From: Actinomycetota bacterium
GTDB lineage: Bacteria > Actinomycetota > Acidimicrobiia > Spongiisociales > UBA5794
DNA length: 46,588 bases
Assembly: GCA_030125685.1 (NCBI GenBank)
Contig: JASJYA010000001.1
Coordinates: forward strand, 1 to 46,588
Direction of reading: 5' to 3'
Shown piece after piece: positions 8,523-46,469 of the stretch. The position numbers and the translations under genes were made by a program. The notes under the pieces are model-generated. The model was not told the origin of the DNA. It searched no databases and saw only the letters and a program-made list of their open reading frames with translations. The first letter of the stretch is position 1. Each line of letters opens with the position of its first letter.

Positions 8523-9971
8523 CTACCGGAACGCCGCGTTCTCCTGGTTCGTCAAGAATTCGTATATCTCCACCATGTCCACCCCCGGAATGGTCTCTAC
8601 GGGCATCGCCGCGAGGACGTGCGAATTCGGGCGGACCGACGACCACGAATTGCCGTTCCAACGTTCCGCCATCCTGTCTGTGACGGTGCGGCAGCACTCG
8701 CCGTCAGGGCAGTCGGACGTTGATCTCCGGTCGGTGTTCCAACCCCTGAACCACTTTGCCTCCTCGAAACGGACACCCACTGTGATCGCTGCGTATGGTT
8801 CGTCAACGGTTTCCACGAACGTCGCGCACCAGAACGTGCCTTCGCTCGTGTCTGTGTATTGGTAGTGAATCGTGTACCTGGCGTCGGACACGAAGGCCTG
8901 ACGCGTTCCCCACTCCCTGCACAAGCGCTGCCCCTCGATCGCCCCGATCGAATTCGCCGGGAAGGGGACACCGTTGTTCGAATACGCCTTCCATATGATG
9001 CCTTGGTCGTCGGATCGAACGAAGTGAGTCTTCAGACCCAGATGCTCGGTAGCGAGGTTCGTAAAACGGTGGCCCGCCATCTCATAACTCACGAAGAACC
9101 GATCCTTCAAATCCTCAACAGAGAGATTCCGGTTCGTCTTGGCGTCGAGAAGATACGGCACCGCGACAGCCTCCGGCACGAGCACGGCCCCCGCGAAATA
9201 GTTCGATTCGACGCGCTGTCTCAGAAACTCCGAGAAGTTCTTCGGATCAGGATGGTCGAGTGCGAAGTGGCCCAGGGTCTGGAGGACGACGGTTCGGGAA
9301 CGCTTCGAATCGAGGCTGTCCCTACCGTGCACATACAACTTGCCGTTGCGCATGTCGGTCACAGACCGCACCGACGCGGGCACGTCCGGCGTTCGGATCA
9401 CTTTGAAACCGAAGTGGCCTGCCAGCTTGTTGAGGTCACCCTTCGACATCGCCCCCTGGCCCTCATACCCGATCGCTGCAACCGCACGCGCCGCGAGCGC
9501 TTCAATCTCGGCGAAATAGTTCCCGCGCTCGGTCATCTCCGCCCTGAGCTCGGCGTTCACCGCTCTCGCCTCACTTCTCGTGAACGAAGCGGATTTCTCC
9601 CTCCCCCTCAACTCCCCGTACAGTCTCACGATGTGTTCGAGGGCTGCATCGGGAAGGCGGGCCGTCGGCTTCAGATACGGAAGGCCGAGATCGCGATACG
9701 CCTGATCACGCTGAGCACGCTCAATCGCCACCTCCATCTCCGCCCTTCGCGAGGGCGCGTCCGCGGACAGGAGATCAGAGACGTCCACCCCGAGCGATAC
9801 CGAAAGGTCGTTGATCAGGCCGAGCTTGGGCTCCTTCTTCCCGTTCTCTAGGAGCGACAGGAAAGGTGCGGGCTTCGACACCTTTGCGCCAAGGTCGTCG
9901 AGGGTCATCCCTGCCGCCTTTCGGTAGTGCCGAACGCGTTGTCCGAAGACGAGTGGGTCGATTACTGCCAC
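8523..9971 (-). CDS. ramB: XRE-family HTH regulator with ImmA/IrrE-like and DUF2083-type C-terminal region (RamB-like)
   Basis: N-terminal [43 protein letters not shown] in a long 482-aa architecture. Divergent from aceB-aceA, as for RamB in Corynebacterium and Mycobacterium. GTG start with AAGGAG 8 nt upstream. Confidence 0.7.
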
Positions 9972-10026
9972 AAACTTTTCTCCTTCATCACATTATGCGA
10001 AACATCAGCCGTTTTTATCCTTGCAG

Positions 10027-10049
10027 CAATTTGCTTTTAGCGCAAATTG
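10027..10049. promoter_or_regulatory. candidate RamB-type operator: perfect 8-bp inverted repeat CAATTTGC-N7-GCAAATTG
   Basis: Read directly in the AT-rich 112-bp divergent ramB/aceB spacer. The half-sites contain the TTTGC/GCAAA core of the C. glutamicum RamB box (A[A/G]AACTTTGCAAA). Confidence 0.45.
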
Positions 10050-10083
10050 GTCGTTTCCTGCACACTCACACGAAAGGACATTT

Positions 10084-11694
10084 GTGCAAGAGATTCGAGT
10101 TCTCGGCCCGCTCGCTAAAACGAAGGGCACCATGGATCCTGCCTTTGACCGGATCCTCACCAGCGAAGCACTCTCGTTCGTTGCTGATCTGCATCGTCTC
10201 TTTGACGCTCGTCGCATCGAGCTGCTAGCCAGAAGGGAAGTCCGACAGCAGGAACTCGACTCCGGGGCAGGCTTCGACTTTCTCCCCGACACCACCGCGA
10301 TCCGCGACGGCGAGTGGAGCGTCCGACCGGCGCCGCCTGATCTCCAGGACCGCAGATGTGAGATCACCGGGCCTACAGACCGCAAGATGGTCATCAACGC
10401 ACTCAACTCCGGGGCGAGAGTCTTCATGGCTGACTTCGAAGACTCCAACTCCCCCACATGGGACAACATGGTGCGGGGCCAGAGCAACCTATTCGACGCT
10501 GTCCGGAGACAGATCGACTTCACCGCAGACACAGGCAAGAGGTACGAACTCTCTCGTGCTTCTGCGACCCTCATGGTTCGCCCCCGTGGATGGCATCTCG
10601 TCGAGAAGCATATGGAAATCGATAAAATGCCCGCGTCCGCATCCCTCTTCGATTTCGGTCTCTACTTCTTCCACAACGCCAGGGAGCTCCTCGACCGAGG
10701 ATCAGGACCGTACTTCTACATTCCCAAGCTTGAGAGCAGGCTAGAGGCACGGCTTTGGAATGACGTGTTCCTCCGCGCTCAGGAGCAACTAGGCATCGCG
10801 GAAGGAACGATCAAAGCGACCGTGCTCATCGAGACGATTCCTGCAGCTTTCGAGATGGAGGAGATCCTCTACGAGTTGCGAGACCACTCAGCGGGACTCA
10901 ACGCGGGCCGATGGGACTACATATTTTCCGTGATCAAGAAGCATCGATCCCGCGCGGGGTTCGCGCTGCCTGATCGCGGGCAGATCTCGATGACGGCGCC
11001 GTTCATGCGCTCCTACACCGAGCTACTCGTCAAGACCTGCCACAAACGAGGCGCCTTTGCCATGGGTGGCATGGCTGCGTTCATCCCGTCACGAAAAGAT
11101 GAAGAAGTGAACCGGATCGCGTTCGCCAAGGTCGCGGAGGACAAGAAACGCGAGGCGGCCGACGGTTGCGACGGAACCTGGGTTGCGCACCCCGATCTCG
11201 TTCCCCTGGTCACGGACATCTTCACCGAAGTACTCGGCGACGCCCCGAACCAGCTCGGGAGGCAGCGACAGGATGTCAGTGTCACAGCAAGCGACCTCAC
11301 ACAATTCACGATCGAAGGCGCCACGATCACCGAGAGCGGTGTCCGCCAGAATGTGGACGTTGCTATCCAGTACATCGCCTCCTGGCTCCGAGGCACGGGA
11401 GCGGCGGCGATCTACAACCTCATGGAGGACGTCGCTACCGCCGAGATCTCGCGATCCCAGATCTGGCAGTGGGTCCGGTCGGAATCCGTGACCATCGAAG
11501 GTGTCGCGATCACGCCGTCGTACGTGAACAAGATCGCGGATGAGGAGACGGAACGGCTCCGCGCTGAACTCGGACATGAGATGTACAAGGTTTCGCGCCT
11601 CGATGAGGCCCGAGTCCTCTTCACAGACGTAGCCCTCGCTGACGACTTCCCTGACTTCCTGACCCTGCCCGCATACGACGTCCTCGAGAACTGA
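10084..11694 (+). CDS. aceB: malate synthase A
   Basis: [33 protein letters not shown] and overall malate synthase A layout. Start refined to GTG 10084 (AAAGGA 5 nt upstream). The ORF track starts at TTG 10021, inside the operator-like AT-rich region. Confidence 0.9.
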
Positions 11695-11722
11695 CCACCC
11701 GGTCCCAACCATTGGAAGGAAC

Positions 11723-13012
11723 ATGACCAACAAGAACGCTATCGCCCAGCGAGCGGAAGATATCAGAAAGGACTGGGAGTCCAACCCCAGGTGGAAAGGC
11801 ATCGAGCGGGGGTACTCCCCCGAGAACGTCGTTCGGTTGCAGGGTTCGTTCCTCGAAGAGCACACGATCGCTTCGATGATGGCGGACAAGCTCTGGGAGG
11901 AACTCCACTCCAGGGATTTCGTGAGCGCTCTCGGTGCAATGACCGGCGGCCAGGCCGTGCAGATGGTCAAGGCGGGGCTTCCTGCGATCTACCTCTCAGG
12001 CTGGCAGGTCGCTGCGGACGCGAACCTGGCGGGATCTGTCTATCCGGACCAGTCGCTCTATCCGGCAAACTCTGCTCCGGCTCTCGTGGAGCGAATCAAC
12101 AACGCCCTCCGACGAGCAGACGAGATTGAGTGGTCCGAGGGGGATGGATCGAGGGAGTGGATGGTCCCAATCATCGCGGACGCCGAGTCTGGTTTCGGGG
12201 GCTCGCTCAACGTGTTCGAGCTCACCAAGGCTTTCATCCGATCCGGGGCCGCAGCGGTTCACCTCGAAGACCAACTGTCGTCAGAGAAGAAGTGCGGGCA
12301 CATGGGTGGCAAGGTTCTCATTCCAACGTCGCAGCATGTGCGAACCCTCAAGTCTGCGAGGCTTGCCGCAGACGTGATGGGAGTTCCAACGCTCGTCGTG
12401 GCGAGGACCGACTCGCTCGGGGCCACACTGCTGACCACTGATGTGGACGAAAGGGATCATCAGTTCCTAACGGGTGAACGCACTACTGACGGGTTCTACG
12501 GCGTCCGCAACGGCTTCGAGGCCGCGGTCAGTCGTTGCCTCGCCTATGCGCCATACGCGGATCTCATCTGGTGCGAGACGTCGACTCCCGATCTTGGAGA
12601 AGCAGCCGCATTCGCCGAAGCGATCCATGCCGAGTACCCGGACAAGATGCTTGCATACAACTGCTCGCCCTCGTTCAACTGGAAGCGCCATCTCGACGAT
12701 GCGACCATTGCCACCTTCCAGAAGGAGCTGGCCGGAATGGGCTACCGCTTCCAGTTCATCACCCTGGCAGGATTCCACGCCCTCAACGCAACAATGTTCG
12801 AGCTCGCCTCGGGCTACGCCGAGCGTGGCATGGAGGCCTACGTCGAGCTCCAGGAGGCCGAGTTCGCGATGGAGAGCGCCGGATACACCGCTACACGCCA
12901 TCAGCGAGAGGTGGGCGCCGGATACTTCGACCAGGTCTCCCAGGTGATCTCTGGCGGCATGTCCTCAACCCTCGCGCTCGAAGGTTCCACCGAGGAGGAA
13001 CAGTTTGCTTAA
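11723..13012 (+). CDS. aceA: isocitrate lyase
   Basis: Catalytic signature [17 protein letters not shown]. Lies 28 nt downstream of aceB with a GGAAGGA Shine-Dalgarno sequence. Confidence 0.95.
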
Positions 13013-13034
13013 CAGGAGACAGGAGACAGGGAGG
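13013..13034. repeat. tandem heptamer array CAGGAGA/CAGGAGA/CAGGGAG
   Basis: Read directly. It starts immediately after the aceA TAA and fills the 24-nt convergent spacer. The unit is the reverse complement of the CCTGTCT-type unit at 23884. Confidence 0.9.
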
Positions 13035-15829: not shown

Positions 15830-15878
15830 TTTCGATTTTCGGATCTTGGATTTCGGATTTCGGATCTCGGCCTACGGT
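15830..15878. repeat. tandem heptamer array, 7 units, consensus TYTCGGA
   Basis: TTTCGAT TTTCGGA TCTTGGA TTTCGGA TTTCGGA TCTCGGC CTACGGT, read directly in the divergent maoC/SDR spacer. Confidence 0.9.
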
Positions 15879-15919
15879 ACTACTACCTGGGATGATGCTC
15901 AGATGGAGGAGGCCGGAAC

Positions 15920-16702
15920 ATGGAGATAGAAGGGCGCATCGCAGTCATTACGGGAGGTGGCAGCGGCATCGGCGCCGCGATGGCCCGCCGATTCGCAGTG
16001 GAGGGCGCCAAGAAGGTGATCATCGTCGATCTGGACGGCGACGCCGCTCACTACGTCGCGTCTGACATCGACGGTGGCGCCTTCACTCTCGATGTCACGG
16101 ACGAGCAGGCAACCATCGACGTACTGACTCAGGTAGAGCGCGAGCACGGTCGTATCGACATCCTCTGTCTCAACGCAGGAATTCCGACCGACGGGTCGGT
16201 TGACGCATCCAACGAAGACTGGCAAAGAACCTGGGATGTCAACGTCATGGCCCACGTGTACGCCACACGCCACACGCTGCCCGGCATGCTCGCGCGGGGC
16301 GAGGGCTACATCGTCACCACCGCTTCCGCTGCCGGGCTGCTCACCAACGTCGGAGCTGCTCCGTACTCCGTCACGAAGCACGCCGCCGTTGCACTCGCCG
16401 AGTGGCTCTCGGTGACCTACGGCAGCCGGGGCATCGGCGTCTCCTGCCTGTGCCCGATGTTCGTTGACACTCCGATGCTCGATGCCTTCGCAGGCCACAC
16501 AGACGAGATGCGCGGCTGGGTCGAAAGCCTGGCCATCGATGTTGACGACGTCGCCGAAGCGGTTGTCGAAGCCATTCGCAGCGAGTCGTTCCTCATCCTC
16601 CCCCACCCAATCGTCCTCGACTACTTCCAGCGGAAAGCCCTCGACTACGACCGCTGGATCAGAGGCATGCAGGATCTGAGCGACCGGCTGACGACACCGT
16701 GA
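15920..16702 (+). CDS. SDR family oxidoreductase
   Basis: VITGGGSGIGAAMARRFA cofactor motif and YSVTKHA catalytic YxxxK. GGAGGAGG lies 8 nt upstream of the ATG. Confidence 0.8.
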   Translation: MEIEGRIAVITGGGSGIGAAMARRFAVEGAKKVIIVDLDGDAAHYVASDIDGGAFTLDVTDEQATIDVLTQVEREHGRIDILCLNAGIPTDGSVDASNEDWQRTWDVNVMAHVYATRHTLPGMLARGEGYIVTTASAAGLLTNVGAAPYSVTKHAAVALAEWLSVTYGSRGIGVSCLCPMFVDTPMLDAFAGHTDEMRGWVESLAIDVDDVAEAVVEAIRSESFLILPHPIVLDYFQRKALDYDRWIRGMQDLSDRLTTP

Positions 16703-16704
16703 GG

Positions 16705-16739
16705 CACCGTAGACCGCTGACCGTTGACCGCTGACGGTT
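16705..16739. repeat. tandem heptamer array, about 5 units, consensus GACCGYT
   Basis: CACCGTA GACCGCT GACCGTT GACCGCT GACGGTT. It fills the convergent spacer between the SDR stop (16702) and the QOR stop (16739). Confidence 0.9.
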
Positions 16740-17722
16740 TACCTGTCCACCCGCAAGACAATCTTGCCCATCGCCCTGCGTGAGGCGAGGAGTTCATAGG
16801 CGTCGATGACTCGTTCAAGTGGAAATGTCTCGGTTATCGGAGGTTTCAACTCGCCTCCAACGATCAGGCGCGAGATCTCCGTGAGATTCGCTGCGGCGGT
16901 GTGAGGCTCGCGAGCGATAAACGATCCCCAGAACACACCGATGATCGACGCCCCTTTCAAGAGAGGAAGATTCAAGGGCAGTCTTGGAATGTCGCCGGCC
17001 GTGAATCCCACGACAAGGTAGCGCCCATTCCAGGCGATCGCTCGAAAAGCGGATTCGGCAAAGTCGCCGCCGACAGGGTCGTAAATGACGTCTGCACCAT
17101 CGCTCCCAGTGATCTCCATGACCCTCGACTTAAGATCCTCGGTGATGTAGTCGATTGTGTGGTCGGCCCCGATGGAGCGACAGAATTCGAGCTTCTCATC
17201 GCTGCTCGCCGCCGCTATGACCGTGGCGCCCAACACCTTTCCGATCTCAATGGCAGCAGAGCCAACGCCTCCGGCGGCGCCCAGCACAAGAAGCGTCTCA
17301 CCCGAAGCAAGCCGGCCCCGCTGCACGAGGGCGTGATAAGAGGTGCCGTAGGCCATCGTCATTGATGCTGCCGTCTCGAAGCCGATCTCGTCTGGAATCG
17401 GTATCGCCGTGCTTTCGTCGACAACCCGCAGCGGAGCAAACGCGCCCACTACACCGACCGACGTCACCCGACGGCCTACCGAAAGGCCGGAGACTCCTTC
17501 ACCGAGGGCTACGATCACACCCGCTGCCTCGGTGCCGGGAACGAACGGCGGCTCAGGCTTGAACTGGTACTCGCCCCGAATGACGAGCAAGTCGGGAAAG
17601 TTGAGGCTCGCTGCGTGGACATCGATGAGCACCTGGCCCGGCGCTGGCGCCGGGTCGGTTACATCGTCCAGGATCAGCTTCTCATGGGAACCGTATTCGG
17701 TACACAGGACCGCCCGCATCAA
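16739..17722 (-). CDS. NADPH:quinone oxidoreductase / zeta-crystallin-type MDR
   Basis: MDR layout with [23 protein letters not shown] 4-nt overlap links it to the thiolase gene. Confidence 0.85.
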
Positions 17723-18908: not shown

Positions 18909-19823
18909 TCAGCTCTTGTCCTGGAGGCCTGTCATGGCCATTTGCAGGAATTTCATCGACTGTTCGGCGCCACCGGCGAACTCCTGATTTCCCTCCGGAT
19001 CCCGAATCTCGTCGAACCGTTCAGCGATGGTTTCCGGTGTCCGCTCGCCAGGCGGTAGCCAGACGCCTGCAGTCTCAAAGATGCCTGCGGTGGCAAATCC
19101 TCCGGCGCCCGCCGTTAGCACTACGCCGTTCGGAGCGTCCTTCGATACAAGGAACAGCGCACCAGGGGTTACTTCTTCCGGTTTTAGAAGAGCTTTCGCC
19201 TCGTCTGGCAGCAGGTCGTCCGTCATGCGGGTGTGAGCGACGGGAGCAAGCGCGTTGACGCGGATGTCGTATCTCGCTCCCTCTGTGCGCAGGGTGTTCA
19301 TCAGCCCGACGACGGCGAGCTTCGCCGCGCCGTAGTTCGCCTGACCGAAGTTCCCGTAGAGACCTGAAGACGATGTCGTGACCATGATTCGACCGTAGTT
19401 CCGCTCTCTCATCCGCTCCCAGACGGCCTTGGTACAGATCACGGTTCCGGTGAGGTGAACCTTGACGACGAGATCGAAATCAGCCTGGTCCATCTTGACG
19501 AACGACTTGTCGCGCAGGATGCCTGCGTTGTTGATGAGAACATCGACTCGTCCCCAGCGCTCGACGGCGTCCCTCACCATTGCCTCGACGGCATCCCCAT
19601 CGGTGACGTCCGCTCCATTAGCGACGGCCTCACCCCCCGCAGCCTCGATCTCAGCCACCACAGCCGCAGCGGCCTCCGAGGATGCACCCGTCCCGTCCCG
19701 TGTCACACCGAGATCGTTCACTACGATTCGCGCCCCGCGCTCTGCGAGGGCAAGAGCGTAGGATCGACCGAGACCTTGGCCTGCACCGGTGACGATCGCG
19801 ACTTGTTCATCGAATGTGATCAT
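18909..19823 (-). CDS. SDR, MFE-2-type (3R)-hydroxyacyl-CoA dehydrogenase-like
   Basis: [29 protein letters not shown] and YGAAKLA. Start refined to ATG 19823 (AGGAG 7 nt upstream). The ORF track extends to TTG 19886, across repeat DNA. Confidence 0.8.
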
Positions 19824-19871
19824 GGCCATACTCCTATCGGTTGATCGCCCACATGCTACGCAACTACTGAC

Positions 19872-19960
19872 ATCCGCAATCCGCAAGCAGTCTGGCGTCT
19901 GGCATCTGGCGTCAGGCGTCAGGGAAGAAACTCTTCCTGTGACCTGTGACCTGTGACCTG
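19872..19960. repeat. composite of three heptamer arrays (ATCCGCA x2; TCWGGCR x5; CTGTGAC x3.4) around a short hairpin
   Basis: Read directly: arrays at 19872-19885, 19891-19925 and 19937-19960, with the hairpin GGAAGA-aac-TCTTCC at 19923-19937. Confidence 0.9.
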
Positions 19961-19962
19961 AT

Positions 19963-20727
19963 TCAGAACTTCAAATAACCGCCGTCGATGGTGATGGTGT
20001 CCCCTGTGTGCCAGGCCGAGGCGTCAGAGGCCAGGTAGACGGCGATTCCTGCGAAATCCTTCGGATCACCCCAGCGTCCAGCCGGGATTCGCGGTTTCAC
20101 CTGCGCCTCAAAGCGATCTTCTGTGATGAACCCGTCTGTCATCCCTGTGACGACCCAGCCGGGCGCAATGGCGTTCGCCCGAATGCCGTGTTTCCCGTAT
20201 TCGACGGCCAATCCCTGGATGAGGGCGCGAACGCCTGCCTTCGTGGCGGCGTAGTGCTCCCCTCTCGGAAATCCCACGTCCGCAGACACCGAGGAAGTCA
20301 CGATGAGAGATCCACCACCGCGTGGCTGCATGTGGTTCACTGCCTCGCGAAACGTCCAGAACACACCATCCATGTTGACAGCGAAGATGTGCCGCCACTC
20401 CGCGGTCGTCATATCGCCAAACGGCGTCGCAAGAGCACCGACTCCTGCGTTCGCGAAAACGGCGTCGACGTGGCCCAGCGCTTCGACGGTCGCCACGAAG
20501 GCTTCGACGACTTCGCTTTCTGATGAGACGTCGACATCGAACGAGTAGGCCTCCCCTCCCTGCCTCGTGATAGCGTCCCTCGCCTCTGCGTTGCGATCGG
20601 GGTTCCTTCCCCAGATCGCAACCGAGGCGCCCGCCGCTCCAAGCGCTTCCGCCATGGCAAGCCCAATGCCATTGTTCCCTCCTGTAACGAGTGCGCCCTT
20701 ACCGTGCAAATCGAAGAGATTCGTCAT
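19963..20727 (-). CDS. SDR family oxidoreductase (FabG/gluconate-5-dehydrogenase-like)
   Basis: VTGGNNGIGLAMAEAL and YAATKAG. Start refined to ATG 20727, which has an upstream GGAGG. Confidence 0.8.
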   Translation of the reverse strand: MTNLFDLHGKGALVTGGNNGIGLAMAEALGAAGASVAIWGRNPDRNAEARDAITRQGGEAYSFDVDVSSESEVVEAFVATVEALGHVDAVFANAGVGALATPFGDMTTAEWRHIFAVNMDGVFWTFREAVNHMQPRGGGSLIVTSSVSADVGFPRGEHYAATKAGVRALIQGLAVEYGKHGIRANAIAPGWVVTGMTDGFITEDRFEAQVKPRIPAGRWGDPKDFAGIAVYLASDASAWHTGDTITIDGGYLKF

Positions 20728-23455: not shown

Positions 23456-23824
23456 ATGCGTCAACGCGTGCTAGTCATCGAGGACTCGCCTTCGGTCAGA
23501 AGGCTGATCGAGGTGTGTCTCAGAGCGCTCGACGTCGATGTCTCGACTGCGGTCGACGGAGCGACGGGACTCGAACAGATCGACGCTACCGACCCACACA
23601 TCGTCGTACTCGATATCGGTCTCCCCGGGCTCGACGGTTGGGATGTGTTGAGCCGTCTGCGGGACAAGCCGGAGTTCACCGAGATGAAGGTACTCGTACT
23701 CACCGCCCACGCGCAGCCTGAGATGGCTGACCGAGCTGCTGAGGGCGGCGCCGACGCGTTCATGACCAAGCCCTTCCGACCGATAGATCTCCGGATCCAG
23801 GTCGAGAAACTCCTAGCAAGCTAG
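23456..23824 (+). CDS. single-domain response regulator (REC only)
   Basis: 122 aa with VLVIEDS, VVLDIGLPGLDG (phospho-acceptor Asp), VLVLTA and MTKPF. No output domain. Confidence 0.85.
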   Translation: MRQRVLVIEDSPSVRRLIEVCLRALDVDVSTAVDGATGLEQIDATDPHIVVLDIGLPGLDGWDVLSRLRDKPEFTEMKVLVLTAHAQPEMADRAAEGGADAFMTKPFRPIDLRIQVEKLLAS

Positions 23825-23840
23825 ACAAGAGACAAGGGAC
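23824..23840. repeat. tandem heptamer GACAAGA GACAAGG GAC
   Basis: Read directly. It starts at the last base of the response-regulator stop codon. Confidence 0.7.
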
Positions 23841-23883
23841 CGCTCGGCTGACGCCTCGCTTTGCGACATGAGACCTTGGATCG

Positions 23884-23938
23884 CCTGTCTCCTGTCTCCT
23901 GTCTCCTGTCGCTACTCTTCTGTCGCTACTCTTCTGTC
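23884..23938. repeat. CCTGTCT x3.9 followed by the 14-mer GCTACTCTTCTGTC x2
   Basis: Read directly. The array ends at the base before the ATG (23939) of the lipid kinase gene. Confidence 0.9.
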
Positions 23939-24886
23939 ATGCGGTCGGCTGTGCTCATCTCGAATCCCTCTGCCTCCCAGTTCACCGGCGGATCGTTTCG
24001 CGAGGTCGTCGCATCCCTCTCAGCATCGTTCGACCTGGCGACAGAGTGGCCGATCAATGCAACCGAAGCGTCAACGGCGTCTGCTAGGGCTGTCGAGCAG
24101 GGCGTCGATGTCGTATTCGCCATGGGGGGCGACGGCGTCGCCCACCACGTCGCCAACGCGCTTGTCGGCACGAGCACCGCCCTCGGCCTCATCCCCGTGG
24201 GTACCACCAACGTCCTCGCGAGGGTTCTCGGCGTGCCTCTGGTTCCCCTGGATGCTGCGAAGTCAGCCACGGAATGGCGCCCCAGACCAACCCGTGTGGC
24301 GCTCGTGGAGGCTCTGACCGAATCCGGGAAGCAGACCCGGTACGCCACATTCTCTCTTGGAGTCGGGTTCGATGCGGACGTCGTCTCGATCGCTGAATCT
24401 CGCCCGTACGCGAAGCTACGATTCGGAGGCGTGCACTATGCCCGGACTGCCGTAGGCCGGTTGTTGTCGACCTGGCGATCTCACATGCCGAATCTGCGAA
24501 TCACATGCGAAGGCGATCGATTTGACGGCGTCGTCGCCCTGACCCAGGTCCACAGTCCATACACATACTTCGGAAAGGTTCCCCTTCACCTCGCGCACGA
24601 TCGTATCGACGGTCTTGCAACTCTGGCGGTGAGCAATCTCGGGATTCTGCGATCATCAGAGATCCTCGCGAGAGCCGTCCTCGGGCGGAGGCACAGGGAC
24701 GCAACCGGAACCCGGCTATGGACGGCCTATGAATCACTCGTCATCGAGGCCGAGCCTGCAACCGCCTTCCACGCTGACGGCGAGCTTCTCGGGATGGCGC
24801 GCTACTTGAAGATCACGCCGGCTCACACCGCGCTGCTCGTCCTGCGCCCCGAGAATCAACGCTCGGATCGGTCAGCGCCGTCGTGA
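23939..24886 (+). CDS. diacylglycerol kinase catalytic-domain lipid kinase (YegS/DagK family)
   Basis: MRSAVLISNPSAS N-terminus and VFAMGGDGVAHHVANAL motif. Start refined to ATG 23939. The ORF-track extension to 23861 translates the tandem repeats. Confidence 0.8.
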   Translation: MRSAVLISNPSASQFTGGSFREVVASLSASFDLATEWPINATEASTASARAVEQGVDVVFAMGGDGVAHHVANALVGTSTALGLIPVGTTNVLARVLGVPLVPLDAAKSATEWRPRPTRVALVEALTESGKQTRYATFSLGVGFDADVVSIAESRPYAKLRFGGVHYARTAVGRLLSTWRSHMPNLRITCEGDRFDGVVALTQVHSPYTYFGKVPLHLAHDRIDGLATLAVSNLGILRSSEILARAVLGRRHRDATGTRLWTAYESLVIEAEPATAFHADGELLGMARYLKITPAHTALLVLRPENQRSDRSAPS

Positions 24887-29760: not shown

Positions 29761-31827
29761 ATGGCCGCATCCAAATTCAGACTCGTCCTCTTCATCGCGG
29801 TACCTGTGTTGATCCTCGTCCTGCCACTCTCGATCTACTTTGTAGACAGCGCGGCAGCGTCGGAGAGAATCGCGCGAAATGTCACGATCGCAGGCATAGA
29901 CGTCGCCCGCCAAACCGAATCCGAAGCGATCGCATCGGTCGAGGCATACACAACCGTTCTTACCGCTCGCGTCGCCCGCATCGAAGTCAACGGCAGATTC
30001 TATGATCTTGACCCATCCGACGTCGGTCTGACATTCGACAGCTCTAGCGCCGTCAATGAAGCTCTCAGTCTCCTCAAGGATGGCATCGGTGAGTGGCTCG
30101 AGGCTTTCACCCAGGATCTTGACGTCCCGCTCACTGCGTCGCTTGATCAGGACATGGTCGAAGCGCAGCTTGTCAAGTGGGAGCAAGACGCCATCCCGAA
30201 TCCCGCGTTCGAGGGGTCAATCACGATCTCGAACGGCAGAGTAAGCCACGAGTATCCGAGGTCTGGCGAAGCTATCGACCGGGATGAAGCAGCGAGACTG
30301 CTCCTCGGAGTGCTCGAATCAGGAAGCAACGACACAATCGGGCTCCCGACGGTTCAATCCGATCCGAAGCTCACCGAGGCCGACATCGATACAGGGGTCG
30401 AGCGAGCAGAGATGATCATCGACCGCGACGTCGTGCTGACCAACGACGAATACGGGTTCGAGTTCCACGTTGGCCCAACGGATCTCGGCCGTGCGCTGGA
30501 AGCGACCGTCGGGTACGGAGAGAATGCGTCGATCGAATTCTCCATCAATCCGTCGATCATCGCTCCGCTCGTTGAAGCCGTTCGAGAGGGCCTCGAGATC
30601 GATCCGGTCGACGCCCGCTGGGAGACGGTGCTCGTCGACGACTTCGAGGACTATCCAGATCAGTACGAGATCAAAGACTCCCCGCAAGAGGAGATGGAGG
30701 GTCTCCCCGAGAATGACACGATTGAGCTAATACCAGGCCTGAACGGTACCACGGCGGATGCGGCGGACATCTCGGCTGCGGTCGAAGCAGCCGCACTCGG
30801 GAACGGCACGGGCGAGCTCCCAATCGTCAAGGACGCAGAACCTGAATTCACCACGGCCATGGCCGAGGCGTTCGGGGACCTCTACGAACTTGCGGAATTC
30901 ACGACCTGGACTCCTGGTCGTAACCGGGTACACAACATCCAGCTCATGGCAGATTTCGTCGACAACGCCCTGGTGATGCCCGGTGAGGAGTTCTCTGTGA
31001 ACGAGAGAGTCGGCCGCAGAACCCTTGAGAAAGGTTTCAAGTACGACTGTGCGATCGTGGGAGGGCTCCTTTCCTGCGAAGAGGATCTGGTCAACGTCGG
31101 AGGAGGCGTAAGCCAGTTCGGCACCACGATCTTCAACACCATTTACTTCAGCTGCCTCGAAACGGTCACCCACCAACCGCATAGCATCTACTTCCGCAAG
31201 TACCCGGAGGGTCGCGAGGCCACGCTCGGATATCCACACCCTGACGTCGTGTTCAGAAATGACACGGACGCGCCTGTCATCATCCGAACGTCTTACACGC
31301 CTCGGACAATCACGGTTACCTTTTTCGGAAACAACGGCGGCGCCACCTGCGGCACCGAACGCGGCGATCGCACCGGGCACACAAGTGCATCGGTTGTCTA
31401 TCGCGCCGATGAAGATGGGAACGTCCCCCCCGGCGAAGAGTTCGTCGAGAGCGAAGGTTCGGGTGGGTGGTCGATCGTCAATACGCGGATCTTCTACGAC
31501 TCGGGCGGCATCGAGTTCGCCCGCGAGACGTTCCCCTGGCGCTACCGCGGCGAGAAGACGCTCATTCTGATGCACCCCTGCGAGGAGAAGGTCGGCGGCG
31601 ACGGCGACTGCCCTGTTGCGGTACCCGCCGTGATCGGCCTGTCCAAAGAAGTTGCCACTGCGAATCTGGTCGCAGCCGGGTTCGCGGTCGCAGTGAATGA
31701 GGTCTCAACGCCCGATGAGGCCCAGGACGACATCGTCCAGTCGGTGACCCCTGACGGGTTCCACGAGTTCGGCGCCCTTATCACGATCCATGTCGGGAAA
31801 TGGGACGGCCCGACGCCCGACGACTGA
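29761..31827 (+). CDS. VanW family protein with N-terminal TM anchor and C-terminal PASTA domain
   Basis: TM FRLVLFIAVPVLILVLPLSIYF and VanW core NIQLMADFV...NVGGGVSQFGTTIFN...REATLGYPHPDVVFRNDTD. PASTA-like tail VPAVIGLSKEVATANLVAAGFAVAV...ITIHVGK. Confidence 0.8.
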   Translation: MAASKFRLVLFIAVPVLILVLPLSIYFVDSAAASERIARNVTIAGIDVARQTESEAIASVEAYTTVLTARVARIEVNGRFYDLDPSDVGLTFDSSSAVNEALSLLKDGIGEWLEAFTQDLDVPLTASLDQDMVEAQLVKWEQDAIPNPAFEGSITISNGRVSHEYPRSGEAIDRDEAARLLLGVLESGSNDTIGLPTVQSDPKLTEADIDTGVERAEMIIDRDVVLTNDEYGFEFHVGPTDLGRALEATVGYGENASIEFSINPSIIAPLVEAVREGLEIDPVDARWETVLVDDFEDYPDQYEIKDSPQEEMEGLPENDTIELIPGLNGTTADAADISAAVEAAALGNGTGELPIVKDAEPEFTTAMAEAFGDLYELAEFTTWTPGRNRVHNIQLMADFVDNALVMPGEEFSVNERVGRRTLEKGFKYDCAIVGGLLSCEEDLVNVGGGVSQFGTTIFNTIYFSCLETVTHQPHSIYFRKYPEGREATLGYPHPDVVFRNDTDAPVIIRTSYTPRTITVTFFGNNGGATCGTERGDRTGHTSASVVYRADEDGNVPPGEEFVESEGSGGWSIVNTRIFYDSGGIEFARETFPWRYRGEKTLILMHPCEEKVGGDGDCPVAVPAVIGLSKEVATANLVAAGFAVAVNEVSTPDEAQDDIVQSVTPDGFHEFGALITIHVGKWDGPTPDD

Positions 31828-31850
31828 CGCCTGTGAGCAGAGAGCATGCC

Positions 31851-31876
31851 GACCTGTGACCTGTGACCTGTGACCT
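31851..31876. repeat. tandem heptamer array CTGTGAC x3.5
   Basis: GAC CTGTGAC CTGTGAC CTGTGAC CTA between the two VanW genes. Same unit and strand as at 19937-19960. A degenerate CTGTGAG CAGAGAG lies at 31831-31844. Confidence 0.9.
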
Positions 31877-31949
31877 ATCCAGAAGCATCGAGTTCCCTGG
31901 ACTCATTCCTACACTTCCAAGACCTTACAAAGTGCGGATCGCCACGAGC

Positions 31950-33935
31950 ATGAAATCACCAAAGCCGATATTCGCGATCGCGCCGATAGCCATCCTGCTG
32001 CTCCCCCTCGGCATATACCTCGCTGATCGAGCAACCTCGACGGAAGAAATCTCTCGCAATGTGATGGTCGCGAACGTGCCCGTTGGGGGTATGGTCCGGG
32101 CGGATGCGACGCTCGCGGTCGAAGCGTATGAGAACACCCTTCGCACCGATACGGGCGTCTTCACCGTGAACGGTCAGACATTCAAGCTTTCCCCGATCAC
32201 GGTTGGTCTCAGAGCCGACGTCGCCACAGCGATCGACGAGGCATTCGCAGCGAGGCGCGACGGTGGAGTATTCACGAATTTCCGTTCCTGGCTCTCCTCC
32301 TTCTCAACGACAGAATTCATTCCCCTCGCGATCCGGTTCGACAACGATGCAGTCGATAAGCAAATCGACATGTGGGAAGCTGAAGCGATACCTAATCCTG
32401 CGTTCAGCGGGGCCGTGACGGTCGTTGAAGGCGTCGTCCTTCTTGAGTACCCACATCCGGGGCAGGCGATTGACCGCAGCACTTCATCCGCCGCGATTGC
32501 TGCCGAAATGAGCACGCTCGACAAACAGGGCGTCGTGCTCGACGTCATCGAGTCGGTTCCGGTCCTGACGAAGGCCAACATCGACGCCGCCGCTGAAGAG
32601 ATCGCCGGAATGATCGACGCATCGATCACCATGGTCTCCTCCCAAGTCGGATTTCGGACCACCTTCAGGCCCGAACACCTCGCTTCCGCAGCTCGGGCGG
32701 ATATCAACGATGACGGAACCGAGCTGCTCACGTCGTTCGACGCCGGCCGGGTCCTCGCGATCCTCGAACCTCGCCGTACGGAGTACGAGATATTGCCCCT
32801 CGACGCCAGATTCGACATCGACCTGGAGACCGACAAGTTCACGATCATCCCGGGCCGCAGCGGCACGCTACTCGACATCGACAGTCTCCTCATCGAGATG
32901 AAGACTGCCGCACTCGGCTCCGGCAACGGCCCCTTCCCCCTCCTCGTCGGCACGCAACCCACCTTCACGACCGAAGATGCACAGGCCTTCACCTCCCTCG
33001 GGCCACTCGCAGGATTCACAACAAAGCACCCGGCGCGACAGTCACGAGTCACGAACATCCAGTTGATGGCGGACGAAGTGAACGGGGCGATCGTCCTTCC
33101 AGGGGATGTGTGGACGATCAATGGCCACGTTGGAGAACGGACCGAGGCCAAGGGGTACGTGGCGGCGCCGGCGATCATTAACGGTGAGCCGTACTGCTGC
33201 GACCACCCGGCGAACATCGGCGGTGGCGTCAGTCAATTCGGCACCACGCTATTCAACGCTGTTTTCTTCTCGTGTCTCGAGGATGCGGGTCACAAACCTC
33301 ACTCGCTGTACTTCTCCCGTTATCCGATGGGGCGCGAAGCAACCCTCGGCGTACCCGCGCCGGATGTGGCTTTCAGGAACGACACCGACCATCCGATTGT
33401 GATCGCGACCGCGTATACCGATACGTCAATAACCGTCAAGATGTACGGTGACAACGGCGGCCTGACATGCACCGACGTCACGCACCACCCCGAGGACATC
33501 GTCGAGTTCGAGGAAGAGCTCGTTGCCGACGAAGAGGGGGAACTCGAACCGGGCCAGCGCGAACACCTCCGGTCCGGCATCGATGGATTTTTCATCAAGG
33601 TCGACCGATTGGTCACATACCCGGATGGGCGTGTCGAGACCGATATGAATCTCGTACACCGGTACCGGCCTCTCACTGAGCAGTACCTCGTCCACCCATG
33701 CGAAGTGACCGGGGAGCCCTTGCACTGCCCTGTCAAACTCATCTCCGTTGTAAATTTGACATGGGCCGACGCACTCGCCCAACTCTCCGATCTCGGCCTG
33801 TTCGCTGCAAAGAACACGGGTTTCGTGGACGATCCCGCTAAGCACGACATCGTCCTCACACAGGATCCGGCGCCAGGCGACTGGGTGGAAGACGGCTCGA
33901 CGATCGCGCTCACGGTCGGCGTGTATCAGGAATGA
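31950..33935 (+). CDS. VanW family protein with N-terminal TM anchor and C-terminal PASTA domain (paralog)
   Basis: Same architecture as 29761-31827, with NIQLMADEV...NIGGGVSQFGTTLFN...REATLGVPAPDVAFRNDTD and a PASTA-like tail ISVVNLTWADALAQLSDLGLFAAK...IALTVGV. Start ATG 31950 (GTG 31932 is possible). Confidence 0.8.
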   Translation: MKSPKPIFAIAPIAILLLPLGIYLADRATSTEEISRNVMVANVPVGGMVRADATLAVEAYENTLRTDTGVFTVNGQTFKLSPITVGLRADVATAIDEAFAARRDGGVFTNFRSWLSSFSTTEFIPLAIRFDNDAVDKQIDMWEAEAIPNPAFSGAVTVVEGVVLLEYPHPGQAIDRSTSSAAIAAEMSTLDKQGVVLDVIESVPVLTKANIDAAAEEIAGMIDASITMVSSQVGFRTTFRPEHLASAARADINDDGTELLTSFDAGRVLAILEPRRTEYEILPLDARFDIDLETDKFTIIPGRSGTLLDIDSLLIEMKTAALGSGNGPFPLLVGTQPTFTTEDAQAFTSLGPLAGFTTKHPARQSRVTNIQLMADEVNGAIVLPGDVWTINGHVGERTEAKGYVAAPAIINGEPYCCDHPANIGGGVSQFGTTLFNAVFFSCLEDAGHKPHSLYFSRYPMGREATLGVPAPDVAFRNDTDHPIVIATAYTDTSITVKMYGDNGGLTCTDVTHHPEDIVEFEEELVADEEGELEPGQREHLRSGIDGFFIKVDRLVTYPDGRVETDMNLVHRYRPLTEQYLVHPCEVTGEPLHCPVKLISVVNLTWADALAQLSDLGLFAAKNTGFVDDPAKHDIVLTQDPAPGDWVEDGSTIALTVGVYQE

Positions 33936-33948
33936 GAGAGCAAAGAAT

Positions 33949-33988
33949 TCAGAGCTCAGACAAGAATGTCTGTGCTCTGTGCTCTCAG
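33949..33988. repeat. drifting heptamer array (TCAGAGC TCAGACA ... TCTGTGC TCTGTGC TCTCAG)
   Basis: Read directly in the convergent spacer after VanW paralog 2. The core TCTGTGC x2.7 at 33969-33988 overlaps the stop codon of the small minus-strand gene. Confidence 0.75.
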
Positions 33989-34278
33989 TAATACAGGAAG
34001 AACTCTTCAATAACCCTGTTGCTCGATGCTTCCGCGTCGTGCAGCCAGCCGCCCTCCCTCTGGAGGATTATGACATTCGACGCGACATAGACACGCGAGA
34101 TCGAGTCGTCAGACTCGAAGAGGTCTGATGCGAGCTTCGCTCCGAACGTCGATTCTCCTGCTGCGCCATGGGCGGATGCATACCCCTCTCCATCCGCGCC
34201 TGTCAGGGACCGATCCGTTGTGACGATCATCGAATCATCTGTGACTCTCGTGTCTACGACTTCGATTCGCTGGCCCAC
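33985..34278 (-). CDS. small conserved-looking protein, possibly Nfu/NifU N-terminal-like
   Basis: 97 aa from GTG 34278 (GGAGG 4 nt upstream). The segment FGAKLASDLFESDDSISRVYVASNVIILQRE..W loosely resembles the Nfu_N pattern. The functional call is weak. Confidence 0.4.
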   Translation of the reverse strand: MGQRIEVVDTRVTDDSMIVTTDRSLTGADGEGYASAHGAAGESTFGAKLASDLFESDDSISRVYVASNVIILQREGGWLHDAEASSNRVIEEFFLYY

Positions 34279-34334: not shown

Positions 34335-34376
34335 CCTGCCGGCATCTGGCATCTGGTGTCTGACATCCGGTCTACG
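34335..34376. repeat. tandem heptamer array, about 5 units, consensus GYRTCTG (GCATCTG GCATCTG GTGTCTG ACATCCG GTCTACG)
   Basis: Read directly between the pyk stop and the small gene. The unit is a rotation of the TCTGGCA unit at 19898. Confidence 0.85.
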
Positions 34377-34382
34377 ATTTCG

Positions 34383-35819
34383 TCACGTGTCAGAGACCGG
34401 ATGCAGTACGTCACCTGATCCGACGACGTGAAGTTTCATGAGATTGGTCGAGGCAAGCTGATTTGGGGGCACACCCGCAACCATCACCAGCCCATCCCCC
34501 TCTTCCACGAGACCTCTCCGCAGCAATTCGCTCTCAGCCGAGGCGATCATCTCATCCGTAGAGTGGACGCGGTCAAGATGCATCGGCCAGATACCGCCGT
34601 AGATGGCCATGCGGCGGTATGTGGAATCAACCGGCGTGAACGCGTACACATCCGCTCTCGGTCTGTACTTCGCAAGGAGTCTCGCTGTCGTCCCACTCTC
34701 GGTGAACGCAACGATCGTGTTGAGGCCGAGGCGATCGGCTGTGTCGACGGACGCTTCCGCTGTTGCGGACGCAAACGCAGCGCCGACCGAGAGACCCGAG
34801 ATGTCCTTTGCCCGCCCAAAACTCGGTGACTGTTCAGCCTCCATGCAGATCGAAGACATGACCTTGACGGCACGAGTCGGATACTTGCCGATCGCAGTCT
34901 CCGCCGAAAGCATCACGGCGTCAGTTCCATCGAGCACCGACCGGTAGACGTCCGCCACCTCGGCGCGGGTCGGGCGGGGACCTGTCACCATCGACTCGAG
35001 CATCTCTGTTGCTGTGATCGAGATCTTGCCGGCCGCGTTCGCCTTATGGAGAATCTCATATTGTGCCCATGGCACAGACTCGAGAGACAGTTCCACGCCA
35101 AGATCACCTCTCGCGACCATTGCGCCATCCGCCTCAGAGAGAATGTCGTCGAGGTTCATGTACCCGAAGGCTGTCTCGATCTTGGCGATGATGGGTGTAG
35201 CTCCGACAATCTCGCGCACGGATCGAATGTCGGCGCCAGAGTTCACGAAGGAAGCGGCGACCAGGTCCACACCGAGCTTGGCGCCGAACTCGAGATCCTC
35301 GATGTCTCGGTCGGTAACAGCTGAAAGATCCGTCTTCGCGCCTGGGAATGACACACCCTTGTGGTCGAGGAGCACACCTCCCTCGATGACATTGGCCTGT
35401 ACGCCGTCATCACCGACTTCGGTGGCTTCAAGCTCGATTACGCCATCAGCGAGGAACACCCTGCCCCCAACGCTCATCTCGACACATTCGAGATACGCGA
35501 TGCAAATATTCTGAGAGTCGCCGAGTCCGCCTCCAGGATTCAGATGAACAGTCGACCCGGTGGCCAGCACGATCTCACCGTCGGGAAATTCACCGACCCT
35601 GATTTTCGGGCCCTGGATGTCCTGCATGATCGCGATAGGTGTCGCCATGTCGCTTGCAACCCGCCGAACGATGTTGTACAGCGTCTCGTGATCTTCGTGG
35701 GTGCCGTGGCTGAAGTTGAGACGCGCAACGTTCATGCCGCGTTCCACCAGCTTGGAGACCTTGTCGGGGGAATTGGTCGCGGGACCCAGGGTTGCGATGA
35801 TCTTGGTCTTGCGATGCAT
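34383..35819 (-). CDS. pyk: pyruvate kinase
   Basis: KIIATLGPATNSPDKVSKLVERGMNVARLNFSHG and full-length PK layout. Start refined to ATG 35819 (the ORF track extends to 35972). Confidence 0.95.
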   Translation of the reverse strand: MHRKTKIIATLGPATNSPDKVSKLVERGMNVARLNFSHGTHEDHETLYNIVRRVASDMATPIAIMQDIQGPKIRVGEFPDGEIVLATGSTVHLNPGGGLGDSQNICIAYLECVEMSVGGRVFLADGVIELEATEVGDDGVQANVIEGGVLLDHKGVSFPGAKTDLSAVTDRDIEDLEFGAKLGVDLVAASFVNSGADIRSVREIVGATPIIAKIETAFGYMNLDDILSEADGAMVARGDLGVELSLESVPWAQYEILHKANAAGKISITATEMLESMVTGPRPTRAEVADVYRSVLDGTDAVMLSAETAIGKYPTRAVKVMSSICMEAEQSPSFGRAKDISGLSVGAAFASATAEASVDTADRLGLNTIVAFTESGTTARLLAKYRPRADVYAFTPVDSTYRRMAIYGGIWPMHLDRVHSTDEMIASAESELLRRGLVEEGDGLVMVAGVPPNQLASTNLMKLHVVGSGDVLHPVSDT

Positions 35820-45678: not shown

Positions 45679-46194
45679 CTATTCGTAGCTACGTCGGATC
45701 GACGCTCTCAGGTCCTTCATTAGCACATACAGGTGGTTCGGGTTCTGCTCGAGTGCCACGAACCCGTATCGCTGGTAGAACGCTGCAGCTCCATCGTCCT
45801 TGGCGTGCACAAACACAGCTCTCCCACCGATGTCGTCGGCCGCGGCCGCACAGCGTGCCAGGGCGTCCTTCAGGAGATCGCCACCAAGACCGGTGCCCTG
45901 GACGCACCGATCGAGACCAAGGCGCGCGAGGAGGATCACCGGGATCGGCCTTTGGCGCGGCAGCCCGGCGCCCAGGCGGCCTGGCGCCTCTTCAGGCTCG
46001 ATTGTGTGCGGGGCCAAGGTGCAGAAGCCCACGATCCGTGTATCTCGCTCGAGGACGTAGGACACCGAAGCGCCGGCGCCCTGAGCGGACAGAGCGAAGC
46101 GCTTGAGCCACTCGTCGAGGGCTGGCACACCGCAGTCAAACCGATCGAGGTCGTCGCTTGCCTCGATCCTGCGAACGCGCCGCAGTTCGGTCAC
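45679..46194 (-). CDS. GNAT-family acetyltransferase toxin (TacT/AtaT/KacT-like)
   Basis: 171 aa with an IEASDDLDRFDCGVPALDEWLKRFA N-terminus and a GNAT core ending in FYQRYGF. A 4-nt overlap links it to the DUF1778 gene. Confidence 0.8.
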   Translation of the reverse strand: MTELRRVRRIEASDDLDRFDCGVPALDEWLKRFALSAQGAGASVSYVLERDTRIVGFCTLAPHTIEPEEAPGRLGAGLPRQRPIPVILLARLGLDRCVQGTGLGGDLLKDALARCAAAADDIGGRAVFVHAKDDGAAAFYQRYGFVALEQNPNHLYVLMKDLRASIRRSYE

Positions 46195-46469
46195 CCCGGT
46201 GGAATCTGGCTCTGCTGTGCGAACAAGTCCACGAGTTCAGGAACAGCGACCGGCGCGTCATCAAGAGCGTCAACAAAGCGGGAGAACTCTTCACTGCTGA
46301 GAACCACCGGCTGATACTCAGCGATCACCGACCGGGCACGCGTGACCGCGCTCTCTTCGACAAATGCTGTCTTGGACGTTCCCAACAAGGTTGCTGCCTC
46401 GCGCACAAGTGCGTCGCTGTGAGCCTTCACGCGGAAGTTCCATCTGCTGTCGCGTTGTTCAACCGTCAT
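46191..46469 (-). CDS. DUF1778 (RHH) antitoxin (TacA-like)
   Basis: 92 aa with the N-terminal RWNFRVKAHSDALVREAA ribbon-helix-helix pattern typical of DUF1778. GGAG lies 7 nt upstream of the ATG. Confidence 0.8.
   Translation of the reverse strand: MTVEQRDSRWNFRVKAHSDALVREAATLLGTSKTAFVEESAVTRARSVIAEYQPVVLSSEEFSRFVDALDDAPVAVPELVDLFAQQSQIPPG

Follow-up and report, generated by a model that had tools for sequence, protein, structure and literature searches.

Whole-unit variation of intergenic heptanucleotide arrays in a lineage of uncultured Acidimicrobiia

The DNA analysed here is a stretch of 46,588 nucleotides, referred to throughout as the window (contig JASJYA010000001.1 of GenBank assembly GCA_030125685.1, positions 1 to 46,588), from an uncultured member of the Acidimicrobiia. 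Its intergenic spacers carry short, contiguous arrays of seven-nucleotide units, and the length differences found in these arrays between near-identical strains are changes of exactly one unit. The focal example is the 139-bp spacer at 19824-19962, flanked by two minus-strand genes for short-chain dehydrogenases, SDR1 and SDR2. An earlier note on this DNA, made from the letters alone, described three arrays and a hairpin in this spacer, and both the sequence and Tandem Repeats Finder (TRF) bear out that description. The spacer and the genes that bound it are laid out as follows.

18909-19823, minus strand: SDR2, short-chain dehydrogenase, the downstream gene bounding the spacer (Pfam; public gene calls)
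19872-19886: ATCCGCA array of 2.1 copies in the SDR1-SDR2 spacer (TRF and sequence)
19890-19925: mosaic of GTCTGGC, ATCTGGC and GTCAGGC, about five units in a single phase (TRF, 4.4 copies with 87% matches)
19923-19937: hairpin GGAAGA-AAC-TCTTCC with a 6-bp stem, between two arrays (sequence; paired in minimum-energy folds)
19936-19960: perfect CCTGTGA array of 3.6 copies, beginning 2 nt past the SDR1 stop codon (TRF)
19963-20727, minus strand: SDR1, short-chain dehydrogenase, the upstream gene (Pfam; public gene calls, 254 aa)

The mosaic consists of a core of 4.4 copies at 19890-19920 that decays out to 19925, and the CCTGTGA unit of the array at 19936-19960 recurs at 31851 in the window and at position 1502 of L149 (contig JASJYC010000004.1 of NCBI assembly GCA_030123665.1). 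The larger fold surrounding the hairpin at 19923-19937 is not significant (z = -1.1 and -1.6). A scan of 19600-20200 for a GC-rich stem-loop with a run of T gave no terminator-like site, and no consensus promoter was found in the focal spacer.

The whole window was scanned with TRF and by counting exact tandem runs. TRF returned 14 rows at period 7 and three at period 14, the latter overlapping period-7 arrays, and exact tandem runs numbered 12 at period 7, the other periods from 3 to 15 having 0-2 each. Exact recurrences of 7-mers numbered 73 at offset 7, 42 at offset 14 and 9 at offset 11. With gene coordinates taken from public calls on near-identical contigs, intergenic DNA makes up 2,292 nt (4.9%) of the window and holds 11 of the 14 exact arrays of at least two copies (binomial P = 1.3e-12). 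The density of exact arrays is thereby 4.8 per kb in intergenic DNA and 0.068 per kb in coding DNA, a difference of about 70-fold, and about 9% of the intergenic bases fall in exact heptamer arrays. No intergenic enrichment was seen at periods other than 7. These counts agree with the intergenic enrichment that the earlier note had put forward for checking, while its impression that coding sequences are free of arrays was nearly but not entirely correct: genes contain short arrays of two copies at 16260 and 33040 and an imperfect array at 43101, and a stop codon is overlapped by the array at 31808-31831.

Extensions of 9.3 kb to the left and 5.5 kb to the right bring the genome sequence covered to about 61 kb. 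The left-hand extension served as a blind test of the pattern and contained four further intergenic arrays built from the same CCTGT-core units, one of them of 11.9 copies. The right-hand extension of 5.5 kb contained zero arrays.

Eight other array-bearing spacers had been named in the window. All the arrays listed for them are real, but the spacers number seven, since the arrays at 23824 and 23884 share one. In the spacer assigned to 33949 an array is indeed present, but the repeat at 33949 itself is weak and the exact one lies at 33969. The arrays outside the focal spacer are the following.

13012-13030: ACAGGAG, 2.7 copies, filling the 24-bp spacer between the convergent isocitrate lyase and acyl-CoA dehydrogenase genes (TRF)
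15839-15870: TCGGATY, 4.6 copies, in the spacer between the divergent SDR3 and MaoC genes (TRF)
16706-16743: ACCGYTG, about five copies, returned by TRF as a 14-mer of 2.7 copies, between the convergent SDR3 and ADH genes
23823-23839: AGACAAG, two copies, overlapping the stop codon of a response-regulator gene and near reverse complement of the array at 23884
23884-23910: CCTGTCT, 3.9 perfect copies, upstream of the diacylglycerol-kinase (DAGK) gene (TRF)
23902-23938: 14-mer TCTTCTGTCGCTAC, 2.6 copies, reaching the DAGK start codon at 23939 (TRF)
31808-31831: GCCCGAC, 3.4 imperfect copies, overlapping the stop codon of the first VanW-domain gene (TRF, sequence and gene ends)
31851-31876: GACCTGT, 3.7 perfect copies, between two VanW-domain genes (TRF)
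33969-33985: TCTGTGC, 2.4 copies, forming the 3' arm of a hairpin at 33936-33986 between convergent genes (TRF and fold)
34341-34371: GGCATCT, 3.9 decaying copies, 12 nt downstream of the pyruvate-kinase stop codon (TRF, 75% matches)

Most arrays touch or overlap a stop codon, namely those at 13012, 16706, 19960, 23823, 31808 and 33985, and the array ending at 34371 lies 12 nt off. The 40-50 nt ahead of start codons, with motifs that are conserved in relatives, are usually free of arrays; those at 23884-23938 lie just upstream of a start codon and the one at 15839 lies in a divergent promoter spacer. Spacers between convergent genes are occupied as well.

At least ten distinct units are present within 46 kb, and yet the repertoire is restricted. 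Among the 20 arrays of the window and the 9.3 kb to its left, seven pairs share the same unit where 0.28 were expected (reached in 0 of 20,000 simulations), and 26 pairs agree within one mismatch where 5.2 were expected. ACAGGAG and ACAGGTC each occur at three loci and ACAGGCG at two, and the recurring units CCTGTCT, CCTGTGA and CCTGTCG have the CCTGT core in common. The sharing of units between distant loci that had been remarked on from the sequence holds in each instance: CTGTGAC at 19937 and 31854, TCTGGCA and GGCATCT at 19890 and 34341, and CCTGTCT at 23884, which is the reverse complement of the unit at 13012. The arrays at 31851-31876 and 19936 have an identical unit in opposite orientation relative to transcription, CTGTGAC being antisense at 19937 and sense at 31854.

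Folding distinguishes a minority of the arrays. Inverted pairs of arrays form strong hairpins at 1490-1565 of L149 (z = -6.2), at 33936-33990 (z = -5.4) and at 23822-23912 (z = -2.8), whereas the folds of 19824-19970, 31820-31955, 34335-34385 and 16696-16745 are no better than shuffles, three whole spacers likewise fold no better than shuffled sequence, and most arrays have no significant fold. That the arrays are not hairpins holds for most of them but not for the inverted pairs. The hairpin at 33936-33990 (-28.9 kcal/mol, z = -5.35) lies between a VanW-domain gene and a 97-aa gene convergent with it, and is a candidate bidirectional terminator with the TCTGTGC array as its 3' arm. No Rfam family matched the window at the gathering threshold.

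The arrays are reproduced in independent assemblies. P0001, a protein encoded on an ENA metagenome contig, matches SDR2 at 100% identity, and the nearest named proteins and metagenome-assembled genomes (MAGs) belong to the Acidimicrobiia or, more broadly, the Actinomycetota. The ENA MEGAHIT contig has the SDR1-SDR2 spacer without a single base difference, and no indel interrupts it in six NCBI MAGs or in Logan assemblies of three or more sequencing projects. Since the same arrays appear in independent assemblies, they are a property of the organism and not an assembly artefact, a concern that had been raised from the start.

A comparison of copy number between strains, which had likewise been suggested, revealed differences of unit length. 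The near-identical strains differ by 9-46 substitutions per locus and are more than 99.8% identical where the full 21 kb is covered, and over about 32 kb of alignment they show only two indel sites, each of exactly 7 bp within an array. At the 13012 array, between convergent genes, strains L124, L126 and L130 carry exactly one extra 7-bp unit (CCTGTCT). At the 23884 array, upstream of the DAGK start, the MAGs that cover the site (six) have exactly one unit fewer, except GCA_030123745.1 (L138), and the majority of strains are likewise one unit shorter than the window.

L144, a sister lineage, shares 98.9% identity with the window over 20.9 kb. Array-bearing spacers contain all six of its indels, three of them being 14 bp, the length of two units. 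L144 has 14 bp (two units) fewer at 15839-15870, 14 bp fewer at 16706-16743 and one 14-bp unit fewer at 23902-23938, together with an 18-bp insertion at the 23823-23839 site and a 1-bp deletion with substitutions in the ATCCGCA array at 19872-19886. In the focal spacer its unit types are reshuffled with the phase kept: three copies of CCTGACG and two of CCAGACG stand where the counterpart in the window has two copies plus three variants.

More distant relatives (L002, L004-6 and L148; 81-85% protein identity) keep the gene order, and their spacers are unrelated to those of the window and essentially array-free, with no period-7 excess. The arrays are restricted to one lineage. Because they are absent from syntenic relatives and vary in strains, they are of recent origin and specific to the lineage, and nowhere else in the region are indels as frequent.

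We consider it likely that the arrays are heptanucleotide microsatellites which change by slippage in whole units, are tolerated outside genes and are mostly near-neutral filler. Slipped-strand misalignment in replication or repair would create the arrays and alter their length by whole 7-bp units, and they would persist only in non-coding DNA, where a change of length is harmless. The scarcity of arrays in genes would follow from 7 not being a multiple of 3, such that gain or loss of a unit shifts the reading frame, and coding DNA would be cleared by purifying selection. Within spacers the arrays would take the unconstrained part, which is usually beside the stop codon. Their origin would be recent and confined to a single lineage of uncultured Acidimicrobiia at species level, with rapid turnover, and most of them are probably filler without a dedicated function, although side effects are possible where promoter elements become spaced differently or where inverted array pairs supply hairpin stems.

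Several observations weigh against this explanation. The coverage is limited to about 61 kb of genome, in which the arrays are patchy, with none over the approximately 17 kb from 34.4 kb to the end of the right-hand extension. The same unit recurs at loci 10-30 kb apart, which neutral local birth does not predict. Some arrays of the same unit have short similar flanks, such as GACATGAGAC beside two CCTGTCT arrays, which such a birth would not predict either, a similarity that extends for about 10 nt or less and could represent decayed repeat units. Several arrays are arranged as inverted pairs with strong hairpin potential. Generic slippage moreover predicts no sharp preference for 7 over 4, 5, 8 or 9, and the microsatellite explanation thus accounts neither for the period of 7 nor for the recurrence of a few units.

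Such gaps direct attention to explanations in which the arrays are made or used by something specific. An active period-7-specific and sequence-biased process that seeds and copies CCTGT-core heptamers in many phyla is to be considered because the period is sharply 7, because units recur and invert, and because identical (CTGTGAC)n arrays in mosaics are present on multiple contigs of unrelated genomes. Such a process, activated in this Acidimicrobiia lineage, might stem from an enzyme, from faulty repair or from a selfish element, and we regard it as rather unlikely. A role of the arrays as sites for a sequence-specific DNA- or RNA-binding protein, acting as a regulatory network, has counterparts in published proposals for other bacteria, namely for TAACTGA in Beggiatoaceae (PMC4679880) and for heptamers upstream of Nostoc genes (bioRxiv 10.1101/2022.06.06.494920), and it would fit both the recurrence of a restricted CCTGT-core repertoire at distant loci and the location of the arrays at 23884-23938 and 15839 near starts or in a divergent promoter spacer. 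Such sites are nonetheless improbable here, given at least ten units in 46 kb, a unit that is sense to the transcript at one locus and antisense at another, arrays in convergent spacers that offer nothing to regulate, a copy number that varies in near-identical strains and orthologous spacers of syntenic relatives that lack arrays.

The recurrence of units at distant loci with short similar flanks could also indicate a dispersed and actively copied element, REP- or MITE-like or made by an enzyme, of which the arrays would be components or relics, with inverted pairs as the functional unit and solo arrays as half-sites. The inverted pairs with strong hairpins at three sites, the two tandem non-coding elements of about 450-500 bp to the left of the window, each starting with an inverted pair, and the CTGTGAC array on two or three contigs in several unrelated genomes point the same way. 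However, no transposase or RAYT-like gene was seen in 61 kb, most arrays are without an inverted partner or a significant fold, the similarity of the flanks (about 10 nt or less) could stem from decayed units, the mutations observed are in-place gains and losses of units, and the window contains none of the remaining conserved parts of the L149 element, so that a copied element has little probability in our view. That the arrays are transcription terminators or stabilisers of 3' ends is suggested by the location of most of them, in contact with a stop codon or a few bases away from it, and by the strong hairpin at 33936-33990 between convergent genes. Yet neutral filler would also come to lie near stop codons if the promoter and ribosome-binding parts of a spacer are constrained, the focal spacer has no terminator-like site, the folds of four array regions match shuffles, and relatives of equal operon layout lack the arrays; this role is very improbable. 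The arrays are not canonical terminators, and the earlier note had already set hairpin terminators aside. For binding sites, copied element and terminators alike the counter-evidence outweighs the support.

Three other candidates were rejected. The presence of a unit in both orientations and of arrays between convergent genes speaks against a strand-specific RNA signal. A stop in all frames through three TGA-containing heptamers was dismissed because TGA is on the non-transcribed strand at 19937. As had been noted from the letters, the arrays are not CRISPRs either, their units being 7 nt long and contiguous with no spacers, whereas CRISPR repeats measure 23-50 nt and alternate with unique spacers of like length. 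The relation to REP and BIME sequences, dispersed imperfect palindromes of 20-40 nt, is mixed: most arrays are direct repeats without a significant fold and no RAYT-like gene was seen in the region covered, while three inverted pairs form strong hairpins.

Sites bound by SARP regulators consist of heptamers about 11 bp apart, not contiguous, beside a -10 element. Exact 7-mer recurrences here peak at offsets 7 and 14, not at 11, and an operator of the SARP type is therefore rejected, although the heptameric direct repeats bound by SARP in Streptomyces resemble the arrays in being heptamers in actinobacterial promoter regions (PMC5930380).

The preferred reading, slippage-driven microsatellites, places the arrays in an already described class, the bacterial heptanucleotide simple sequence repeats (SSRs). 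A survey from 2007 (Mrazek, Guo and Shah, as cited in PMC4692102) is reported to have found heptameric SSRs over-represented in many bacterial genomes, and polymerase slippage is given there as a hypothesis for the excess. Both marks of long SSRs are found here, head-to-tail copies of a unit of 5-11 bp without gaps and a copy number that changes by whole units between close genomes (7 bp in strains, 14 bp in L144). The likeness extends to the low copy number, the over-representation, the intergenic location, the variability between close relatives, the occurrence in free-living bacteria and the proposed origin by slippage. It differs in that an Acidimicrobiia host was not among the examples found in the literature searched and that here the polymorphism of units is seen directly in natural strains.

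The cyanobacterial STRR family, which the earlier note had offered as the closest analogue, is a fair comparison as regards behaviour, with tandem heptamers and only a few units, each of which returns at many loci between genes. The phylum differs, however, and the arrays here are shorter (2-4 copies, at most 12). The units of STRR1 (CCCCAGT), STRR2 (TTGGTCA) and STRR3 (CAACAGT) do not occur in tandem in the 61 kb, and membership is rejected on the units and on the host, which belongs to the Acidimicrobiia and is not a heterocystous cyanobacterium. Tandem TAACTGA, GGGAATC, GGGGATT and GATAGRA were likewise absent from the 61 kb.

Rehm et al. (2015, PMC4692102) describe a strong intergenic heptamer excess in Xanthomonas, which is high in GC, and in Nostoc; array length there varies among closely related species, and inverted pairs occur now and then. 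The arrays studied here resemble GGGAATC and GGGGA(T/C)T of these genera in their intergenic location, in the high GC content of the genome, in varying in length and sequence between close relatives and in forming occasional inverted pairs. Those units, however, are G-rich and can form G-quadruplexes, whereas the units found here are without G-tracts and unrelated. TAACTGA repeats, known from marine Beggiatoaceae, cyanobacteria and Bacteroidetes (MacGregor 2015, PMC4679880), are intergenic as well, with 2-6 copies and one unit at many loci in distant phyla; in contrast, the present arrays comprise many units in both orientations and are mostly close to stop codons. In Chloroflexus, 22 (GATAGRA)n arrays have been described (Subirana and Messeguer 2019, PMC6749651). 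The literature searched contained no paper on heptamer repeats in Acidimicrobiia. What is new is the host clade, the single-unit changes in natural strains, the array-free syntenic relatives and the CCTGT-core repertoire.

The distribution of one unit was followed beyond this lineage by scanning one genome per species for (CTGTGAC)x3, which gave at least 117 stretches, a number that is without a control count. The matches listed include Acidobacteriota, Cyanobacteriota, Chloroflexota, Gemmatimonadota, Bacteroidota, Planctomycetota, candidate phyla and Streptomyces, and among them several unrelated genomes have a CTGTGAC array on two or three separate contigs. In 854 kb of matched loci, further exact arrays numbered 208 at period 7, 98 at period 6 and at most 28 at each remaining period from 4 to 12, and mosaics of adjacent heptamers like that of the focal spacer are common. 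The loci were selected on the presence of one such array; the counts demonstrate that genomes rich in arrays occur across many phyla and do not imply a bias in all bacteria. Streptomyces and Nocardiopsis loci of 67-73% GC carry CTGTGAC arrays, often in mosaic with other heptamers. Together with the excess published for Xanthomonas they make it an overstatement that no equivalent is described for high-GC genomes of the actinobacterial type. On the question whether CTGTGAC is a favoured unit in general, scans of viral contigs gave only small, indecisive counts, 5 for (CTGTGAC)3 and 20 for (CCTGTCT)3, compared with 0 and 5 for two composition-matched permutations.

Although the intergenic excess of 7-bp tandem repeats in bacteria dates from a report of 2007, its cause has yet to be explained. 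The lineage described here is a compact natural example, in which an array-rich species-level clade can be set against array-free relatives of like gene order, and many metagenomic samples already display single-unit gains and losses between strains. The question of why the period is seven could become testable if relatives rich and poor in arrays were compared in their genes for replication and repair. The arrays are also hypervariable strain markers, and they are break points in short-read assemblies.

Eight Logan short-read contigs from two projects (L127-L129, L131-L133, L146 and L147) start exactly at 19960, the outer edge of the CCTGTGA array, which suggests heterogeneity of copy number within samples that breaks the assembly graph. 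At the opposite end of the focal spacer (19824-19871), a -10-like motif is recognised by eye about 30-40 nt upstream of the SDR2 start, reading TAGCAT in the window and L002 and TAGAGT in L004, and apart from this motif the SDR1-SDR2 spacers of the three are unrelated. SDR2 probably possesses a promoter of its own. No indication of a plasmid origin was obtained, a megablast search of 18-22 kb against PLSDB giving zero matches.

Upstream of DAGK, the start codon (ATG, 23939) directly abuts the end of the 14-mer repeat, and inspection of 23913-23941 by eye revealed no Shine-Dalgarno sequence. Each 14-mer unit contains TACTCT, and by eye the relatives have TACCCT at equal distance. The TACTCT of the 14-mer resembles a -10 box for a leaderless DAGK mRNA, and the repeat may duplicate a promoter element. 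In the spacer between SDR3 and MaoC, a motif of about 35 nt, GAGCATCATC(C/G)CAGGT(A/G)GTAGTAC(C/G)GTAGG at 15871-15919, is kept in all four lineages compared and is retained down to 81% protein identity, and the heptamer array adjoins it without overlap. The motif is likely an operator or promoter.

To the left of the window, positions 1449-2498 of L149, which are about 6.8-7.9 kb from window position 1, form a gene-free region of about 1 kb with two tandem copies of a non-coding element, 431-503 bp apart. Each copy opens with an inverted pair of heptamer arrays (hairpin of -48.7 kcal/mol, z = -6.2), followed by an AAACCCC..GGGGTTT hairpin, a middle section that has diverged and, at the end, the conserved TTGGTTTTCGCG..TTTTCGCG. 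The element has no convincing open reading frame, Rfam family or tRNA, the only match being a spurious one of a miRNA model to the hairpin, and its other conserved motifs were not found in the window. On the same contig, a GACAGGA array of 4.4 copies includes the stop codon of a tRNA U5-methyltransferase-like gene and is directly followed at 747-797 by 2.2 copies of a 23-bp unit, GTCTCATGTCTAAGAGCGAAGCG, the start of which is the near reverse complement of the GACAGGA unit.

Two neighbouring gene groups may be added. At 8523-13012 the malate synthase and isocitrate lyase genes stand opposite a divergently oriented gene for a regulator with helix-turn-helix and Peptidase_M78 domains, and the shared spacer has an AT-rich motif conserved across relatives; the layout presumably resembles that of RamB-type regulators beside glyoxylate-shunt genes in other Actinobacteria. 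At 45679-46469 a gene for a TacA1-family antitoxin is followed by one for a GNAT acetyltransferase, and by their Pfam labels the two make up a TacAT-like toxin-antitoxin pair.

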